DNA of 64,000 bases from Betaproteobacteria bacterium (lineage in GTDB: Bacteria > Pseudomonadota > Gammaproteobacteria > Burkholderiales > Burkholderiaceae), in contig JBAXKF010000002.1 of the NCBI GenBank assembly GCA_037137465.1, positions 12,075 through 76,074 of the forward strand, written 5' to 3'. The notes beneath the pieces are model-generated. The model searched no databases, was not told the origin of the DNA, and saw only the letters and a program-made list of their open reading frames with translations. The translations under genes were made by a program, and so were the position numbers. Positions 5,525-32,385 of the stretch are shown here, piece by piece; positions within the stretch are counted from its first letter, which is position 1; each line of letters begins with the position of its first letter.

Positions 5525-6570
5525 CAACTCATAGCGCTATTTCTGAGGAGTCCTATTTATACCCATGGCAAAAGGGACTCTTTCATGAACTCATTCAACA
5601 CCAAATACCTCATTCGCTGTTGTTATTTGGTCAAAAAGATATTGGTAAGTTAAAGTTTGGCTTAGAGCTCGCAAACTATCTATTATGCGAATCTTCTGAT
5701 CAAAAGCCTTGTGGCGTCTGCGATGCTTGCCATTGGGTAAAGCAGGGTAGTCACCCTGATTTATTTATCGTTCTTCCGCAAAATCTCAGGCATCTGCTGC
5801 CTTTTGAGATTGAAAACGATGCTGACCTAGAAGATGCTGACGAAAAAAAGCAAAGTAAAGTTATTCGTATTGAGCAAATACGCCACGTTATTTCTAGTAA
5901 TGAACTAGGGTCTTATCGGGGAGGTAAAAGGGTAGTTCTTATATATCCGATCGAAAGTATGCAAATCGAAGCAGCAAATTGTCTTTTGAAAACACTAGAA
6001 GAGCCTTCAAGTAATCTTCATTTTGTTTTAATCACCCATCAATTAGAGAGAATTTTGCCTACCATTCGTTCGCGCTGTCTTTTATTCTCAATACCTAAAC
6101 CCCCCATCAATGAAGCGATCAGTTGGTTAAGTACTCAATTACCGGACAAGTGGACAGCGCCTCTCTTGGCACAACGTCTATCGCTGCACTCTGGTGCGCC
6201 ACTTAAAGTCATGGCATCTATTAACGATAAAGCACTTGATGAGTCAATTATTACCAATCAATTAGCAAAATTCAAATCTTTACATACGGGTGAGATAATT
6301 GATTTGTTAAGTCAAAACTCTATTTTGGAAATTTTGAATTGTATTTTGAAATGGTCTTTTGATCTGAATCTTGTTTTATTTGGACAACAGGTACGGTACT
6401 TTCCTCAGTTTGAGGAGAAGATGAAATCGTCTTGTTTAGCGATGAATAAGATTCACTTTCAACAATTTTTATCCGGTCTTAAGGATGATCTGCGATTGGC
6501 TAATCACCCACTGTTTCCGAAAGTACAACTTGAAGCTGTTTTAATGAAATACACTCAGCTGTTTAAATAA
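5521..6570 (+). CDS. holB: DNA polymerase III delta' subunit
   Basis: Zn motif C...PCGVCDAC, HPD, AANCLLKTLEEP, PTIRSRC; follows tmk. Confidence 0.95.
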   Translation: MTTHSAISEESYLYPWQKGLFHELIQHQIPHSLLLFGQKDIGKLKFGLELANYLLCESSDQKPCGVCDACHWVKQGSHPDLFIVLPQNLRHLLPFEIENDADLEDADEKKQSKVIRIEQIRHVISSNELGSYRGGKRVVLIYPIESMQIEAANCLLKTLEEPSSNLHFVLITHQLERILPTIRSRCLLFSIPKPPINEAISWLSTQLPDKWTAPLLAQRLSLHSGAPLKVMASINDKALDESIITNQLAKFKSLHTGEIIDLLSQNSILEILNCILKWSFDLNLVLFGQQVRYFPQFEEKMKSSCLAMNKIHFQQFLSGLKDDLRLANHPLFPKVQLEAVLMKYTQLFK

Positions 6571-6572
6571 TT

Positions 6573-7346
6573 ATGTTTATTGATTCCCATTGCCATTTAG
6601 ATTTTGATGAATACGCCAATCAGTTGGATGATATTTTGCTCAATATGAAGAATGCTTCAGTTGAAAAAGCTCTATGCATCAGTGTTGACATACCCGACTA
6701 TCCCAAAGTTTTGTCATTAGCAACCCAATATCCACACTTGTACGCATCGGTTGGTGTTCATCCAGATTATGAAGATACTCCTGAGCCCACTAAAGAGTGG
6801 TTAGTTAGCCAAGCGCAAAACCCTAAAGTTATCGCTATTGGAGAGACTGGGCTTGACTATTACAGAATGAGTGATCGTTCTTATGAGTCATTAGAATGGC
6901 AAAGAAATCGTTTCCGAACCCATATTCAGGCAGCCTTAGAATCTAAACGACCTCTTATTATTCATACCCGTGCTGCCTCAGACGATACGATTAGAATTTT
7001 AAAAGAAGAGGGGGCTGACCAAGTGGGTGGGGTAATGCATTGTTTTACTGAGTCTAAAGCAGTTGCACAAGCCGCTATTGACCTTGGTTTTTACATATCC
7101 TTTTCTGGGATTGTTACATTCAAAAATGCGCTTGAAATCAAAGAAACATGTAAGTTTGTCCCCCTTGATCGCTTATTGATAGAAACGGATTCTCCCTATT
7201 TAGCTCCAGTACCTCATCGGGGTAAAGTGAATCAACCGGCGTGGGTTAGTCATGTCGCCCAATATGTTGCTGAATTAAAAGGGATTCCTGTGGAAGATCT
7301 CGGTGAGATCACCTCTCGTAATTTTCACCAATTATTTAACATTTAG
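6573..7346 (+). CDS. tatD: TatD-family hydrolase (YcfH-like)
   Basis: IDSHCHLD, IGETGLDY, HTR, HCF, ETDSPYLAP. Confidence 0.93.
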   Translation: MFIDSHCHLDFDEYANQLDDILLNMKNASVEKALCISVDIPDYPKVLSLATQYPHLYASVGVHPDYEDTPEPTKEWLVSQAQNPKVIAIGETGLDYYRMSDRSYESLEWQRNRFRTHIQAALESKRPLIIHTRAASDDTIRILKEEGADQVGGVMHCFTESKAVAQAAIDLGFYISFSGIVTFKNALEIKETCKFVPLDRLLIETDSPYLAPVPHRGKVNQPAWVSHVAQYVAELKGIPVEDLGEITSRNFHQLFNI

Positions 7347-7353
7347 GTTTTTT

Positions 7354-8052
7354 ATGCGTTTACTACCCATATTTTTTACTTGTATTGGCATTTTCTTTAC
7401 AACATCTCTTTATGCTCAGAATTCGAAAGATGAAGTTATCCCTGAAATAGACACCTTTTTTCGATATATTAGCTTTGATGATGTAGAGGGAGTAAAAAAA
7501 TCATTAAAAAACAAGGATTTAAGTCCTAATATCTTAAGTAAGTATGGTGATGCAGCATTACCTTATGCGGTAAAAGAAGATTCCTACAAAGTATTTAAGT
7601 ATCTATTGCAAGTCCCTGATATTGATATTGATATGGAAAATAAAAGTACTGAAAATGCCGTGATGATGCTGGCTTTTAAAGGTAAGTTAGATCTTATCAA
7701 AATGATGGTTGATGATTTAGGTGCAGAACCCGATAAGGACGGATGGGCTCCATTGCATTATGCAGCGACTAATGGTCATTTAGATGTCGTTCAATACCTA
7801 ATCAGTAAGGAAGTTGACGTTGATGCTCAAAGTCCTAGTGATACAACGCCTTTAATGATGGCGGCGAGATATGGCCATATTAAAGTGGTTAAATATCTCT
7901 TGGACCATGATGCTGATCTTTCTATGCACAATACACAAGATCTAACTGCCATTGATTTTGCTTTAATGAATAACCAGAAGGAAATTGCTGATGGTCTAAG
8001 ATCGCGTTGGAAGAAGTTATATGGCACTGATTATGTAATGAAGCCTAAATGA
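7354..8052 (+). CDS. Exported ankyrin-repeat protein
   Basis: Probable start at ATG 7354 gives an N-terminal signal peptide (MRLLPIFFTCIGIFFTTSLYA). Ankyrin repeats: GWAPLHYAATNGHLDVVQYLI, TTPLMMAARYGHIKVVKYLL. Confidence 0.88.
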   Translation: MRLLPIFFTCIGIFFTTSLYAQNSKDEVIPEIDTFFRYISFDDVEGVKKSLKNKDLSPNILSKYGDAALPYAVKEDSYKVFKYLLQVPDIDIDMENKSTENAVMMLAFKGKLDLIKMMVDDLGAEPDKDGWAPLHYAATNGHLDVVQYLISKEVDVDAQSPSDTTPLMMAARYGHIKVVKYLLDHDADLSMHNTQDLTAIDFALMNNQKEIADGLRSRWKKLYGTDYVMKPK

Positions 8053-22605: not shown

Positions 22606-23436
22606 TTACTGACCACCTTGTAATAACTCAATCTCTTCATCCGTAAAGCCGGCTTGTTTTCGTGCGGCAACGTTAAAGGGGCCCCTAAGAGTTGGGGCAT
22701 TGTATTGCAGTGATAATTCATGAAAGGCTTTCAGAGGATCAAGTTCACGTGTCTTACACATGAAATTGAACCAACGGTTACCAATTTCAACATGACCAAT
22801 TTCATCATGTAAGATCCTATCTAAAATATCGACCATTTGCTGATCTTTAACCTGTAAAAATCGAGCCCGCATTGCAGGGACAGCATCTAAGCCTCTTGCC
22901 TCCATTGTTCTTGGAACTAATGCCATGCGAGCAAGAATATCTCCTTTTGTTTTTTCAACCATTTCCCATAAACTATCGTGGGCTGGGAAATCACCGTAGT
23001 CATATTGAAGGGTGTTTAAGTAATTTTTGAGTAATAAAAAATGCGTAGCCTCTTCATCTGCAACTTTTATCCAATCAAGATAATAGTCTTTAGGCATATC
23101 AGCAAATCTCCATACAGCATCAAGAGCTAAGTTAATAGCATTAAATTCAATGTGCGCCAAAGCATGGATAGCAACCGCCCTTCCCTCTATGTTGTGCATG
23201 GATCGTTTTTTGACCGCTAATGGGTTAACCAATACAGGTTGATTAGGACGACCGGGGATTAAATATTCATCCGATACAATAATCTCTGAGGGGTTAATTA
23301 GAGACTCTTCTTGAAGATTGCAGGCCGCTATACGCTTGACAGCGTCATATTTAGAGATAGGATCGGTTACAGTAAGTGCTTCATAAGCCTTTAAACGAAG
23401 ACTTTGTGCATGGTTATTGGGCGTATTTATCATCAA
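22606..23436 (-). CDS. Ferritin-like di-iron protein (DUF455)
   Basis: HALAHIEFNAINLALD, EEATHF, EARGLD, DEIGHV. Confidence 0.88.
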   Translation of the reverse strand: MMINTPNNHAQSLRLKAYEALTVTDPISKYDAVKRIAACNLQEESLINPSEIIVSDEYLIPGRPNQPVLVNPLAVKKRSMHNIEGRAVAIHALAHIEFNAINLALDAVWRFADMPKDYYLDWIKVADEEATHFLLLKNYLNTLQYDYGDFPAHDSLWEMVEKTKGDILARMALVPRTMEARGLDAVPAMRARFLQVKDQQMVDILDRILHDEIGHVEIGNRWFNFMCKTRELDPLKAFHELSLQYNAPTLRGPFNVAARKQAGFTDEEIELLQGGQ

Positions 23437-24484: not shown

Positions 24485-25195
24485 ATGTCGGAAATTGTTG
24501 TATTGAGTGGTGGTGCTGCGGCTGGAGTTGTTAAAGGAATTCAAACTGATTTTGAAAGTAAACACCATTGCAAAATCAATGGCACCTTTAGTGCTGTAGG
24601 GGCAATGCGTGATCTGGTTGTTCAGGGTGCTCAGTGTGATCTCGTGATTCTTTCGAAATCTTTAATTGATGAACTTGTGAAATCAGGGCATGTCCACGCA
24701 GATTCAGTAAGATCATTAGGTATTGTTCCAACTGGTATCGCAATTCCTAGCAAAAGAACGACTCCTCCCCCGTCAATATTGACAACTGATGAGTTAAAGG
24801 AAGTTTTTAGGTCTGCTCCAGCACTGTATTTCCCAGATATGGAAAAATCAACTGCAGGTATCCACTTTATGAAGGTGATGCGACAGTTAGGTTTAGACCA
24901 AGAATTAGCAAGTCGTTTTAAAACGTTTCCGAATGGCGCAACAGCAATGGCACAAATGGCCTTAGACCCTAATTCGAATGTGATCGGTGGTACACAGACT
25001 ACTGAGATCAACATTTGTCCTGGGGTTCAACTGATTGGGTTACTTCCTCAATCAGTAGAGTTAAATACAGATTACACATTGGCCATCTGTAAAGCCTCTC
25101 AAAACCCTGAATTAACATTAAAGCTAGCCAATGTTTTAGTTGGGCAAGAATCATTAGCAATCAGACAACACATTGGTTATCTAATAAACGCTTAA
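24485..25195 (+). CDS. ModA-fold (SBP_bac_11-like) protein without a signal peptide
   Basis: VLSGGA, F..VG.M, STAGIHF, FPNGATAM, QTTEI...PGVQLIG.LP motifs; the mature-type sequence starts at residue 4. Confidence 0.72.
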   Translation: MSEIVVLSGGAAAGVVKGIQTDFESKHHCKINGTFSAVGAMRDLVVQGAQCDLVILSKSLIDELVKSGHVHADSVRSLGIVPTGIAIPSKRTTPPPSILTTDELKEVFRSAPALYFPDMEKSTAGIHFMKVMRQLGLDQELASRFKTFPNGATAMAQMALDPNSNVIGGTQTTEINICPGVQLIGLLPQSVELNTDYTLAICKASQNPELTLKLANVLVGQESLAIRQHIGYLINA

Positions 25196-25196
25196 C

Positions 25197-25451
25197 ATGA
25201 AAAAGATCAATAAAAATGTTATCGTCGTTGGCGCTGGACCAGTAGGTTTGCTTTGTGCCCTTCAATTAGCTAAAAATGGTATCCCTGTAACTGTGATTGA
25301 GGCTGAACCTGAATTAACTATTGACTTACGTGCAGGAACATTTCATCCGCCAACATTAGAAATGTTAGCTCCTATTGGAGTTACTGATGCCATGATGGAA
25401 ATTGGTATTCTGGATCCATTGCCTGGGATGGGAATACTAGCGCAAAAATAA
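25197..25451 (+). pseudogene. 5' fragment of an FAD-dependent monooxygenase (MhpA/PheA-like)
   Basis: VIVVGAGPVGL..A..L...GIPVTVIE.......RAGTFHPPTLEML; stops after 84 aa versus roughly 400-550 aa for the family. Confidence 0.85.
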
Positions 25452-25454
25452 GCT

Positions 25455-25853
25455 TTAAATTGCACAAATTTTAATTTGTACAGTCGCTCCCCAAAATACA
25501 CATGGATAAAATCCAAATTCATAATATCCTGAATGGGGAGTTGTAAAGTCAATCTGACCACGATCATTTTGGTCACTGACATAAAAATTTCGGCGATCTG
25601 ACGCACCAGGATAAATGAATTCCCAGGAACTTCCATTCCATCCACGCATCGTGACTGAGACTTTTTGCCCAGCAGCAAAATTTCCATAAAAGGTAGTTCC
25701 CTTACCTAGGAACGACCAGCAATAAGACCCTTTGGGAAATGCAATTGGTACTCGGATATCTTGATTGCAAGCCGAGGCAAATGCTTTAGTTTGTAGTGAC
25801 AATGTAATTAGCAGAATCAATATAGCTTGAAATTTTCGAAAGGTATTTTTCAT
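25455..25853 (-). CDS. Small secreted beta-rich protein, PliG/PPC-like
   Basis: Signal peptide ending AFA; F.KG...TFY...AAGQKV.V...TP.SGYYEF; four Cys. Confidence 0.6.
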   Translation of the reverse strand: MKNTFRKFQAILILLITLSLQTKAFASACNQDIRVPIAFPKGSYCWSFLGKGTTFYGNFAAGQKVSVTMRGWNGSSWEFIYPGASDRRNFYVSDQNDRGQIDFTTPHSGYYEFGFYPCVFWGATVQIKICAI

Positions 25854-25955
25854 TCTTATTAATGTAAATTTAACAATTGGAATTAAATTATAGCCCTACT
25901 AAAGTTGAGGCTTTAATACGCTACTAATTGATTGCGATATTTTTAAACTCAAAGT

Positions 25956-26948
25956 CTATGGGGTATCTTTTATATTATTCTCAATCACAAATTTACCCCA
26001 AATAGCCACTTGTTTACCTATAAAATCTCTTAGAGTATTAGGATTTCCTGCTACAACTTCAATTCCTTGAGCCTTAAATTTTTCAACTACAAGCGGATTT
26101 TTAAGAGCTTTTGTAATCGATTGATGCATTGATTCAATGATTGCAGGCGGTGTTTTAGCGGGTGCTAAAACACCCCACCAAGTTGGAGCGTTAAACCCAA
26201 GAAAGCCACTTTCAGAAATAGTGGGAATGGTTGGTAAGCCAATTGATCTTTTAGAGGTGGTTACAACAAGAGGTACTACACTGCCATTCTCAATATGGGG
26301 TCTCATGATGGTTTCTGAGCCCATCGCTAGTTGTATTTGCCCACCCAAGACATCTTGTAGTAATGGCGGTCCGCCACGATATGGAATGTGACTCCAATCA
26401 AAACCTTCAGTTTTAGCTAAACGGGCCATTGCTAAATGGGCTAAGCTACCAATCCCAATAGATCCATAGCTAAATTGATTGCCTGACTTAGACAGTTCTA
26501 TTAATTGCTTAAAATTGACAATGCCAGATTTCTTACTGGCTACTAAAATCATAGGTGAAGTGCCAATGAGAGTAACAGGGGCAAAATCCTTTAATGTGTC
26601 ATAAGGTAATTTATCCTTAAAGCTAGGGTTAACCGCATGAGTATCAACTACAACTCCAAAAGTATACCCATCAGGATCAGAGCGAGCCAAAGCTGCAGTG
26701 CCAATAACTCCAGAAGCTCCGCCAATGTTTTCAACAATAATATGTTGTTTTAAATCAGGTTGAAGGGAGTTAGCTAGAATTCGGGCAATCTGATCGACTG
26801 AGCCACCAGCAGGAAAAACTGCGATGAAGCGCATTGTTTTTTCGGTTGGCCAAGTTCCAGTACCTGAGGTTTGAGAGTAGGAAATATTACTCATACCTAC
26901 TAAAAAAAGACTTATAAACAACGCTATTGATGATATCAAATGTCGCAT
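25956..26948 (-). CDS. Second Bug/TctC substrate-binding protein
   Basis: Signal peptide; WP....FIAVFPAGGSVD; GGASGVIG; YGSIGIGS..HL; HIPYRGG. Confidence 0.9.
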   Translation of the reverse strand: MRHLISSIALFISLFLVGMSNISYSQTSGTGTWPTEKTMRFIAVFPAGGSVDQIARILANSLQPDLKQHIIVENIGGASGVIGTAALARSDPDGYTFGVVVDTHAVNPSFKDKLPYDTLKDFAPVTLIGTSPMILVASKKSGIVNFKQLIELSKSGNQFSYGSIGIGSLAHLAMARLAKTEGFDWSHIPYRGGPPLLQDVLGGQIQLAMGSETIMRPHIENGSVVPLVVTTSKRSIGLPTIPTISESGFLGFNAPTWWGVLAPAKTPPAIIESMHQSITKALKNPLVVEKFKAQGIEVVAGNPNTLRDFIGKQVAIWGKFVIENNIKDTP

Positions 26949-27130
26949 TTTTCTCCCTCTGTTAACGCGTATTTTTTTAATAGTAATTGCGAGTAAAGAT
27001 ATAGAACAAAAGCTTCTTGTGAAACGAGTATTTGTTTAGCTTACTCTAAAGGTTCATAAAATGCTAGAAAATATAATTAGTACGTTTCTTTATTAACATC
27101 AATTCAACTAAAAAATTAACGATTAAGCTT

Positions 27131-27182
27131 TTAAATACTACTCCCTCTCAATATTAGCTGGTGGTTTACCTGAAATATCATA
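27131..27182 (-). repeat. Diverged direct repeat of the guaA 3' end (att-like copy)
   Basis: 27138-27182 matches 29257-29301 at 38/45 nt (44/52 with flank); it translates as [14 protein letters not shown] versus gua[15 protein letters not shown]. Confidence 0.85.
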
Positions 27183-27215
27183 GGCTAGAGCATATGAATG
27201 AGTGGTTTTGATTCA

Positions 27216-27315
27216 ATGAAAGAGTGTTGGCATCATTGGTGCAGTCTTAGCGGGCCTTAGTTGCGTGATTTTATTACAAGAGTATTGCTTAAATATCTCC
27301 AAAAAGTTCACTTGA
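27216..27315 (+). pseudogene. Decayed N-terminus of an NAD(P)/FAD-dependent oxidoreductase (renalase-like)
   Basis: Removing one A from atgaaagagt gives MKSVGIIGAVLAGLSCVILLQEYCLNISKKFT*, a degraded GAGLAGLSCA Rossmann motif. Confidence 0.6.
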
Positions 27316-27327
27316 GCATCACCGAAG

Positions 27328-29229
27328 TCAGTTTTGGTTTAAAGCATTACCAATATAAAATTTAGAAACAGTTGTTTTAGGAATCTTTTTGTCATAACTT
27401 TCAAACCACGTTCTAACATCCTCTTCGAGCCCAACACCATGCATAAAGTTATAAATCGCTTTTTTTAGACCCTGCCCTAAACTATCGTGGTCAACACCAA
27501 CGGGGTCAATAAAGCTGATGTCATTTTTAGCAAATGTGATTTCAGGAAGAGGAACGAGCTGAACACCATACTCTTCCGGGTTTTTACCCACCGGAGAATG
27601 AACAGTACAAATAAAGCGATGAAAAAATCCACTCTGAATACAACCATGCTCAAATAATTGTCTAACATATTCCAATGAATTGACGGTTTCTTGGACTGTT
27701 TGAGTTGGAAATCCATACATTAAATAGGCATGTACTAATATACCCGCATCAGAAAAGCTTTTTGTTACTTTGGCAACTTGTGAAACTGAAACACCTTTTT
27801 TCATCAAATCAAGTAATCTATTTGAAGCAACCTCAAGTCCTCCTGACATTGCAATACAGCCACTTCTAGCCAATAGACTAGCTAATTCAGGGGTAAATGT
27901 TTTTTCAAAACGAATATTCCCCCACCAAGAAATTACAACCCTGCGACGAATTAATTCTTCCGCAAGGGCCTTTAAGATTTTTGGAGGCGCGGCTTCATCA
28001 ACAAAATGAAAACCAGTCTGACCAGTTTCTACAATGATTTGTTCAATACGATCAACAAGTAAACTAGCAGAAGCGGTTTCATATCGAGAAATGTAATCTA
28101 AAGAGACATCACAAAAGCTACATTTTTTCCAGTAACATCCATGTGCAACTGTTAACTTATTCCAACGTCCATCACTCCATAAGCGATGCATCGGATTAAG
28201 CATATCTAATAGGGATAAATAGGAGTCGAGTGGTAATCCATCCCATGTAGCGGTGCCAACCTCTTCGAATGGTATATCAGGCTCCTGCCAATTCATAAAC
28301 TCAACTTGATTACTTTCACCTTTAATAAAGGTTCGTACTAATCGACTCTTAGATCGTTTACCGTTTAAGTGATCTAACAAAGCTAGTAAAGGTCTTTCAC
28401 CAGAGTCTAAAGTGATGTAGTCAACATAATCAAAAATTCGAGAATCCGTTATTTCACGCAACTCTGTATTGACATATCCTCCACCTAGAGCAACTTTTAT
28501 TGTAGGATCAGTATTTTTAATCGTTTGAGCGATCCTAAGCGCCGCGTACATGGCGCCTGGAAATGGAACTGACAAGAGGACCAAACTTGGCTGATGACGA
28601 CGAATCGTAGCGATTGATAGATCTCTGAGGTGAAGATCCATTAAGTTCGGTTCCGCATTTAAAGCTTCGTATAAGGGCGTAAATGTTGGTTGACTGCCAG
28701 CAAGAGACTCTGCATATCTCACAAACTCAAAACGACTATCAATTGCATCGCGTAATACGTCTGAAAGATCATTCAGATATAACGTAGCTAAATGGCGAGC
28801 TCTATCGTTGGTGCCTAAAGAACCAAAAGCCCATGCTAAAGTATCTCCGGATTCTTCATCATCAAAAGCCTCTAGCGAGTTAAATCTCGGTCCCTCGGGT
28901 AGAAAGTCACGAGTATTAATACGGTGACTTAATGTGCTATCTTTACCCTGTAAAAAAGCAATCACAGATGATATTGTTGAATAATAATCATCAAAATACT
29001 CGAGGAAAAAACTTACACTAGCACTCCGACTTCTTTCTGGTTGAGCTAATGCACGAGTATGTACCTCAATTAAGCCTTTAGGATTGAAAAAACTAAGAAC
29101 TAAAGCTAAGGCTAAGTCTTCTTGAACTGCTTCAATTCCACGAGATCTTAAAAATCCTGTTAAGTAAGCCGTAGAGGGATACGGAGTATTTAACTGCGTC
29201 ATGGGTGGAATGAGACTTAAGATTTTCAT
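27328..29229 (-). CDS. B12-binding-domain radical SAM protein
   Basis: GCYWKKCSFC (CX3CX2C); N-terminal SLIPP..QLNTPYPSTAYL; GGGY cobalamin-domain-like segment; FHFVDE; GGLE. Confidence 0.88.
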   Translation of the reverse strand: MKILSLIPPMTQLNTPYPSTAYLTGFLRSRGIEAVQEDLALALVLSFFNPKGLIEVHTRALAQPERSRSASVSFFLEYFDDYYSTISSVIAFLQGKDSTLSHRINTRDFLPEGPRFNSLEAFDDEESGDTLAWAFGSLGTNDRARHLATLYLNDLSDVLRDAIDSRFEFVRYAESLAGSQPTFTPLYEALNAEPNLMDLHLRDLSIATIRRHQPSLVLLSVPFPGAMYAALRIAQTIKNTDPTIKVALGGGYVNTELREITDSRIFDYVDYITLDSGERPLLALLDHLNGKRSKSRLVRTFIKGESNQVEFMNWQEPDIPFEEVGTATWDGLPLDSYLSLLDMLNPMHRLWSDGRWNKLTVAHGCYWKKCSFCDVSLDYISRYETASASLLVDRIEQIIVETGQTGFHFVDEAAPPKILKALAEELIRRRVVISWWGNIRFEKTFTPELASLLARSGCIAMSGGLEVASNRLLDLMKKGVSVSQVAKVTKSFSDAGILVHAYLMYGFPTQTVQETVNSLEYVRQLFEHGCIQSGFFHRFICTVHSPVGKNPEEYGVQLVPLPEITFAKNDISFIDPVGVDHDSLGQGLKKAIYNFMHGVGLEEDVRTWFESYDKKIPKTTVSKFYIGNALNQN

Positions 29230-29256
29230 ACGCCATGGATAAAGTTTAATTAAAAA

Positions 29257-30864
29257 CTATTCCCACTCAATCGTTGCTGGAGGTTTTCCTGAAATATCAT
29301 AAACAACACGATTGATGCCACGTACTTCATTGATAATTCGATTTGATACTCTTCCGAGAAGTTCGTGAGGAAGATGAGCCCAATGGGCAGTCATAAAGTC
29401 TTGTGTTTGAACAGCACGCAATGCAACGACGTATTCATACGTTCGGCCATCACCCATCACGCCAACAGATTTAACTGGTAAGAAAACCGCAAAGGCTTGG
29501 CTAGTTAAGTCATACCACGACAGATTCGTTTGAGGGTCAATTGTTTTTCTGAGTTCATCAATAAAAATATCGTCAGCACGAGCAAGAAGTGCTGCAAATT
29601 CTTTCTTTACTTCACCTAGAATTCTGACAGCAAGACCTGGGCCTGGAAATGGATGGCGATATACCATTTCTTTAGGAAGACCTAACTCAATACCTAACCG
29701 TCTTACTTCGTCTTTAAACAACTCTCTTAAGGGCTCTAATAGTTTTAGGTGCATATCATCTGGCAAGCCACCAACATTATGGTGACTTTTGATGGTGTGA
29801 GCCCCCTTCTTTCCTTTACCTGCAGACTCTATAACGTCAGGGTATATGGTTCCTTGCGCAAGCCATTTCGCATTTTTAATTTTTGCGGACTCACTTTGAA
29901 ACACTTCAATAAATTCACGACCAATAATTTTTCTTTTCTGTTCAGGATCAGATACTCCTGAAAGTTGTGACATAAATTGTTCGATTGCGTCTACATGTAT
30001 TACTTTTACGCCTAAGTTACGACCAAACATATCCATGACCATCTTGGCTTCGTTTAGCCTTAGTAAACCATGATCCACAAATACACAAGTAAGTTGATTA
30101 CCTATTGCACGGTGGATTAATGCGGCAGCCACAGATGAATCAACCCCGCCTGATAAACCTAGTATGACTTCATCGGTGCCAACTTGCTGACGAATTTTTT
30201 GAATTGCTTCGTCAATGTAATTACCCATTTCCCAATCGGGGACACAAGCACAGATAGACTTAACAAATCTGTCCAAGATGGTGGTGCCTTGAAGAGTATG
30301 AGTTACTTCAGGGTGAAATTGCACGGCATAAAACTTCCTAAACTCATCTGCCATTCCAGCAATAGGACAAGAATCTGTAGACGCCATTAATTTAAAGCCA
30401 ACCGGCATTACCGTAACAGAATCACCATGACTCATCCAAACTTTGAGTATGCCGTGACCTTCGCTCGTTGTGAAATCAGCAATACCATCCAATAATTTCG
30501 TATGACCTCTTGCACGGACTTCTGCGTAACCAAATTCTCGAGATTTTCCTAAAGACTCAGCAGTCTTAACTTCACCTCCCAGTTGTTGCGCCATGGTTTG
30601 CATACCGTAACAAATACCAAGGACCGGAACACCTAGAGTAAAAACGTTATCAGGTGCTCTGGGCGTATCACCTTCAGTAACCGAACTCGGTCCACCGGAT
30701 AAGATGATGCCCTTAAAGCCCTCTTGCTTAATTTTTTTTTCTAGTTTGTGGGCATCGATATCATACGGAAAAATCTCTGCCAACACTTTGAGGTCACGCA
30801 CGCGACGGGCAATCAGTTGGGTTACTTGTGATCCAAAATCAAGAATTAATATTTTATCGTGCAC
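29257..30864 (-). CDS. guaA: GMP synthase (glutamine-hydrolysing)
   Basis: [34 protein letters not shown]. Confidence 0.98.

Positions 30865-30885: not shown

Positions 30886-32385
<1,500 letters not shown>

Follow-up and report, generated by a model that had tools for sequence, protein, structure and literature searches.

A displaced copy of the guaA 3′ end behind a radical SAM gene in Polynucleobacter: probable scar of an insertion with target duplication

The window analyzed here is a stretch of 64,000 nt (GCA_037137465.1, contig JBAXKF010000002.1, 12,075–76,074) from a 2.44-Mb genome of the genus Polynucleobacter, designated G000. On its minus strand, guaB (30886–32367) lies upstream of guaA (29257–30864), an intact gene for a GMP synthase of 535 aa with the Pfam domains GATase, NAD_synthase, and GMP_synt_C. 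Behind guaA come a 27-nt remnant of a leader (29230–29256, minus strand) and an intact gene for a 633-aa radical SAM protein of putative B12-binding type, hereafter rSAM (27328–29229, minus strand), whose ORF starts at 29229 with ATGAAAATC. Other genomes have ~100–130 nt in the leader position; in G000, ~59 nt are missing from it at a place that is bordered in L036 by the short repeats AATAGTTTTTAAT and AATAATTTCTAAT, and in G227 the leader is full. The rSAM gene is followed on the same strand by a non-coding tail of 145 nt (27183–27327), common to L035, L036, L165, L166, and G227 and without the motif GTTACAC, and then by a displaced, non-functional copy of the guaA end (27131–27182; 14 codons, stop, and 7 nt), which lies in no open reading frame. 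Since rSAM begins 27 nt behind guaA and no terminator-like sites were found in 26900–29450, it is probably read through from, and co-transcribed with, guaBA.

Beyond the copy, the minus strand carries genes for a TctC-family receptor (25956–26948) and a secreted protein of 132 aa (25455–25853). The DNA of 25455–26948 is present also in G227 and is different in every other lineage bearing the rSAM segment, and hence reads as older variable cargo or resident flank. L041 (122–547) has a 141-aa homologue of the 132-aa ORF (~70% DNA identity), which there makes up an islet by itself on the opposite side of rSAM, with guaA on one flank and a decayed guaA scar on the other; apparently, this ORF is another small cargo gene in circulation at the guaA site. 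Further along, an N-terminal stump (84 aa) of an FAD_binding_3 monooxygenase remains on the plus strand (25197–25451), with ~2.7 kb lost in G000—Amdase, TctC, and most of the monooxygenase, junction near 25399–25417—that is kept in G227 and L041. The DUF455 gene (22606–23436, minus strand) lies 4 kb past the copy and 6 kb beyond the site of rSAM behind guaA. A 28-nt inverted repeat, 89% complementary, pairs the start of an SBP_bac_11 gene (24503–24530) with guaB (31677–31704); both sides are G-rich coding sequence, and the repeat may be due to chance.

The copy was first noticed in a sequence-only reading, which gave its match to the guaA end as 38/45 nt, or 44/52 with the flank past the stop. 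Renewed reading of the sequence and a repeat search of the window confirmed both counts: 27131–27182 and 29250–29301 agree in direct orientation at 44 of 52 positions (85%), with 38 of 45 in the coding part, and both borders of the match are sharp, similarity ending abruptly on either side. The working end (29250–29301, minus strand), consisting of the last 14 codons, the stop, and 7 nt beyond, is the proximal copy of the repeat and occupies the attL position. It includes the core GAGTGGGA (29261–29268, minus strand), the center of the att scars ATTGAGTGGGAATA of the genus, and its flank TAGTTTTTAAT is of the type shared by L036, L164, and L165. The corresponding core of the displaced copy, GAGAGGGA (27142–27149, minus strand), has one mismatch to GAGTGGGA, which is a W to R change.

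Seven mismatches separate the two coding parts and are spread over six codons, four of them synonymous (GGA/GGT, CCT/CCA, GCA/GCT, and GAA/GAG) and two nonsynonymous (ACG/AAT and TGG/AGG). A codon-by-codon check thus agreed with the four of seven synonymous mismatches listed earlier, and the decay of the copy by W to R and T to N stands as well. Given that ~21% of random changes would be synonymous here, the probability of at least four synonymous codons among six is 0.02. Searched with a degenerate 26-mer from the shared part, at up to three mismatches, the window gives two matches and 100 shuffles give none, and with the same pattern the whole 2.44-Mb genome yields only two, the guaA end and the copy. 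Chance similarity is ruled out by these counts, and in the genome-wide scan that had been proposed the pair stands alone. An assembly artefact is likewise ruled out, by the independent metagenome contig L159 (99.8% identical to window 27242–24407), in which the copy and its left junction recur. This contig was the sole relevant locus among the matches listed in an otherwise unspecific metagenome scan with a 17-mer (at least 120 stretches). Its position 1 corresponds to window position 27242, within the 145-nt tail, where the contig breaks off with 20 nt that are unlike G000; strain variation at this border in that lake population may account for the break.

The gene enclosed by the two guaA ends encodes a protein with an rSAM cluster motif of the form CX4CX2C (C365, C370, and C373), unlike the canonical CX3CX2C. 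It matches PF04055 with 46.6 bits, above the cut-off, and PF02310 with 27.7 bits, below the cut-off of 32.1; every match to NCBIfam profiles was far below cut-off, and no relative was found by sequence among PDB sequences. The gene is under purifying selection (dN/dS ~0.07), intact in all lineages compared, and paired with the DUF455 gene in most of the genus. From its sequence, the protein looks like a member of an uncharacterized B12-type radical SAM family.

Between the working guaA end and the copy lies a module of 2.1 kb, with rSAM as its sole gene and without a recombinase. The usual gene order of the genus is guaA, DUF455, rSAM, and a conserved block. In G000 the order is guaA–rSAM–copy–…–DUF455, and because DUF455 lies beyond the copy, rSAM is out of its genus-wide ancestral slot. 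An empty site, with the guaA end joined directly to the DNA left of the copy, had been expected in relatives; no true one was found, the closest rSAM-less relative, G004, having different DNA after guaA (guaA–SBP–TctC–DUF455), and no conspecific without the module was found either.

A protein search returned ~22 metagenome homologues of rSAM at 94–97% identity. At the DNA level, the module is 92–95% identical among G000, L035/G172, L036, L165, L166, and G227, compared with 72–78% for flanking genes, or 91% in the case of the sister species G227. The dS of rSAM is 0.16–0.21, versus at least 1.7 for guaB, guaA, DUF455, and an APH-like gene; between G000 and G227 it is 0.14, versus 0.41–0.46 for flanking genes. 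In sliding windows, identity steps up at the guaA stop and falls to noise at the copy. With an rSAM dS of 0.14–0.21 in at least five lineages and flanks ranging from 0.4 to saturated, the module has moved between species, and recently so; its borders fall on the two guaA ends. For the pair G000 and G227, a breakpoint of recombination within guaA itself was considered and rejected, the difference at the last 207 nt of the gene (3.9% versus 8.9% divergence) not being significant (permutation p = 0.2). In the metagenome contig L164 (1723–1842), guaA is ~120 nt shorter than that of G000 and is called only as a C-terminal fragment of 66 aa, through either a deletion or an assembly fault.

The guaA 3′ end is a site of repeated insertion in this genus, with inserts of 0.8–62 kb behind guaA in Polynucleobacter relatives; many species have 6–62 kb inserted between guaA and DUF455/rSAM. 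In G007, G021, and G150, the first gene after guaA encodes a tyrosine recombinase of 420–450 aa (PF00589), and the far ends of such integrase inserts keep a guaA-end copy of 17–21 nt, (GTAACT)ATTGAGTGGGAATA(A/G). The motif GTTACAC occurs 55–75 nt upstream of seven of the eight short scars and also in the guaA-proximal flank of integrase-bearing islands, and is often doubled, in an A-rich context, on the element side of attL and attR (L019/G007, L027/G021, L030/G024, L183/G150, L035, L043, and L180). Its presence at both flanks makes GTTACAC a candidate for the arm-type site bound by a family of guaA-specific tyrosine integrases in Polynucleobacter. The integrases after guaA, the short scars, and this motif together support the earlier proposal that the guaA end is a site used by integrases in the genus. 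GIsul2, too, integrates at the octamer GAGTGGGA in the guaA 3′ end (PMC9376610). A search of PLSDB plasmids with the G007 integrase (tblastn, E ≤ 1e-3) gave nothing except one unrelated recombinase, so no close kinship to the GIsul2 integrase is seen.

Peptide and blastn-short searches of the 20 kb downstream of guaA in 19 genomes of the genus brought up no second guaA end; the relevant relatives came from metagenome contigs and from a genus-wide DNA search (G227, G172, and G150). A guaA-end copy after the same 145-nt tail is present in G000, L159, G227, L035/G172, L165, and L166, progressively decayed, and the DNA past it differs by lineage (a TctC gene, a beta-lactamase-family gene, or a 575-aa gene). 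The copy of G227 has the three mutations of that in G000, namely AAT, AGG, and GAG. The copy is thus no fossil private to this genome, since the same mutated copy recurs in G227 and more decayed versions stand behind rSAM in at least three other lineages. In L036 and L164, rSAM adjoins guaA and no copy is present; this arrangement, which had been held out as an argument against the sequence-only reading, does occur but does not refute it, since other lineages keep the copy.

In G227, the copy has itself received an insertion. An islet of 759 nt (L180 = G227:C1:83000-101000, 6652–7409), encoding a VapB antitoxin (PF09957) and a protein with a weak match to PIN-domain toxins, sits exactly in the core of the copy, with 15 nt (equal to window 27139–27153) duplicated on both sides and GTTACAC on the distal side. 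The left product reads …GCTAAT ATTGAGAGGGAGTA and then actcg; the right product reads …GTTACAC…agct ATCGAGTGGGAATAG and then TATTTAAAAGCTT, the sequence immediately past the copy in G000. The core of the copy has therefore served as an attachment site, apparently for the integrase system of the genus.

A longer analogue is found in G204 (L181 = G204:C12:1-8000, reverse strand, ~6120–7300 in guaA orientation), where guaA is followed by a Gp49/HTH_37 (HigBA-like) gene pair, a 45-nt internal fragment of a module-type rSAM, and a copy of the guaA 3′ end of 207 nt that is 92% identical to the working end. Fifteen of the 17 changed codons in this copy are silent, and a Tyr codon has become a stop. 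The truncated rSAM is fused to the copy at the microhomology TGGAGT; as this joint falls within a cargo gene that is itself truncated, an att site is ruled out there.

The bias toward silent sites, 4/6 in G000 and 15/17 in G204, argues that two working guaA alleles were juxtaposed, rather than that one end was duplicated locally and decayed. Together with a module dS far below that of the backbone, it bears out the earlier supposition that two different working guaA ends were joined; the ends evolved in different lineages and met through recombination with foreign DNA. A local tandem duplication, running from guaA −45 to 145 nt past rSAM, with the second rSAM then lost and the second guaA end decaying neutrally, would need no foreign DNA and would give the junction topology seen here, with downstream DNA joined to a guaA 3′ fragment. 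We nevertheless regard it as very improbable: neutral decay of one copy does not give the silent bias, every comparison shows much lower divergence for rSAM than for its flanks, and the DNA past the copy is lineage-specific, with nothing left there of another leader or rSAM.

The silent codons of relatives had been expected to show which end is resident. The comparison went only part of the way, the copy agreeing with G004 at three sites and the informative sites being too few to name the resident end. The agreement at GGT, CCA, and GCT had pointed to the displaced copy as the native end of G000, an idea since withdrawn: GGT AAA CCA is common to all long copies, from four lineages, and the working ends vary, so that an element-borne copy fits equally well.

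That the repeat was left by site-specific integration, as the sequence-only reading had it, was not borne out for this copy of 45 nt. The corresponding explanation would be a classical island carrying its own integrase, with a guaA-like attP of 45 nt and rSAM as cargo, from which the integrase and the rest were later deleted to leave a fossil islet. Such an origin would accord with the guaA-targeting tyrosine integrases directly after guaA in G007, G021, and G150, the core of which stands at the end of the copy, and with the island in L035 whose MmeI-type gene adjoins the module, an internal scar lying between them in the manner of tandem accretion. Furthermore, replacement gene tails are common in elements that target 3′ ends. 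GIsul2 is an element at guaA (PMC9376610). The earlier remark that no integrase is left holds for the module and for G000, whose only two PF00589 genes are both Xer-like, and the guaA integrase of the genus has no homologue in G000 or G227. Nevertheless, all eight known scars measure 17–21 nt and seven have GTTACAC, an arm that the 45-nt copy lacks, and an integrase remnant is kept in none of the five module lineages. In L039, L043, and G150, attR scars of integrase islands stand upstream of leader-rSAM, which there behaves as chromosomal flank, and the analogue in G204 has an obviously illegitimate joint. A classical island is therefore an unlikely source, if one still to be taken seriously.

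The stretch of 52 nt is probably a scar, left on the distal side when DNA entered the guaA 3′ end by insertion-with-duplication. The missing arm motif of the 45-nt copy, together with the G204 analogue, makes the inner edge look like an illegitimate joint and not like a classical att arm. Under this explanation, a segment comprising guaA tail, leader, rSAM, and tail from the chromosome of another Polynucleobacter lineage would have recombined with the resident guaA end, and the inner edge (tail|TATGAT) would be the illegitimate joint by which the segment was either circularized or linked to recipient DNA. For the crossover at the resident guaA end, RecA using the 45 nt of homology and an island integrase recruited in trans to the core appear about equally probable. 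The gene-tail copy at the far end would let the module re-enter the guaA end of any relative; with the core mutated and no integrase in G000, the module would be fixed there. Microhomology at the G000 joint amounts to only 3–4 nt (TAT/TATA, shared with the L036 tail). A homology of 45 nt is short for RecA, and duplication is an unusual outcome of homology-facilitated illegitimate recombination.

The rSAM leader stands directly after the guaA end, or after its scar, in all members of the clade, so that the arrangement may be partly ancestral and the similarity could reflect later homologous replacement of alleles instead of repeated insertions. Taken to its end, this would make module and copy ancestral to the clade, with the rSAM allele alone swept by homologous replacement and the copy uninformative on the acquisition by G000. 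The same junction in several lineages and the clade-wide homology of the leader speak for such a history, as does the frequent homologous recombination of Polynucleobacter, with hotspots beside islands (PMC5644125). It is nonetheless very improbable, because in every pair the guaA stop and the copy delimit the high-identity tracts and the flanks past the copy are unrelated between lineages. Random end points of recombination would not match these borders unless the guaA ends were the recombining arms, which leads back to the insertion-with-duplication favored here.

Among known systems, insertion with long target duplication, or homology-facilitated illegitimate recombination, fits best. The former was reportedly described by Nobusato et al. 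in 2000 for restriction-modification gene complexes, and the latter is said to go back to de Vries and Wackernagel in 2002. The resemblance lies in an insert without a recombinase, in target repeats of 45 nt plus stop and flank (G000) or 207 nt (G204), in two repeats that come from different alleles, and, for G204, in a microhomology border (TGGAGT). The differences are that the cargo here is a metabolic gene, the normal neighbor of guaA in related species, and not a defence complex, and that the site doubles as an att site for integrases and was reused in G227. Cis-mobilizable elements (CIMEs), such as those related to ICESt1 and ICESt3 of Streptococcus thermophilus, move by accretion-mobilization and keep att arms derived from an element. 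The module shares with them two direct att copies, the lack of recombination and transfer genes, and, in the L035 composite, a place in tandem with integrase islands at a housekeeping gene's 3′ end. The distal copy here is without an element-derived arm, and the likeness is one of layout.

GIsul2, a genomic island of Proteobacteria specific for guaA, provides a comparison at the same gene. Three att copies occur there in one array, and an integrase-less sub-unit, CR2-sul2, located between two of them, is excised and integrated by the integrase of the GIsul2 island (PMC9376610). The two systems have in common the guaA 3′ end and the core octamer, found in G000 at 29261–29268 and with one mismatch at 27142–27149. 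Unlike GIsul2, the rSAM module is without a tyrosine integrase of its own, and none of its kind is present in G000; the duplicated stretch is 45 nt plus flank, versus an attB of 19 bp. A further difference, from the guaA islands, is that the GTTACAC arm is missing in the 130 nt upstream of the long copies of G000, G227, and L035. Additive genomic islands of Polynucleobacter, defined with a 10-kb threshold, have been described (Hoetzinger et al., 2017, via bioRxiv 10.1101/2022.03.25.485477). They are gene cassettes in the same genus, from a partly interspecific pool, with integrases and with housekeeping-gene or tRNA targets, and differ from the module, which is a single gene of 2.1 kb and falls below that threshold. 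Neither guaA nor GMP synthase is mentioned in bioRxiv 10.1101/2022.03.25.485477 or in PMC5644125.

The kind of structure found here is already known: it is an ordinary scar and leaves current concepts unchanged. What is specific to this locus is clean evidence that a metabolic module of one gene has recently spread between species, and the occurrence of integrase scars together with long-duplication scars at one site. For the guaA 3′ end as a landing site, it adds a defined family of Polynucleobacter integrases along with their likely arm motif, and it indicates that long duplications of gene tails at integrase sites can arise without an integrase. A second guaA tail, which gene callers miss, can serve in annotation as a marker of a transferred segment.

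A bolder proposal, which we put forward tentatively and hold to be doubtful, is that the rSAM module is an integrase-free one-gene cassette with a gene tail as its portable landing site, entering the guaA end of any related species via RecA or a borrowed integrase and now sweeping at least five Polynucleobacter species because its CX4CX2C radical SAM enzyme is advantageous. If this were true, the cassette, the 207-nt case of G204, and the toxin-antitoxin islets would mark conserved gene tails as a general, recombinase-independent cassette site in streamlined freshwater bacteria. For the ecology of lake bacteria, the locus singles out one uncharacterized radical SAM enzyme that has recently spread between species and is a reasonable target for functional work.
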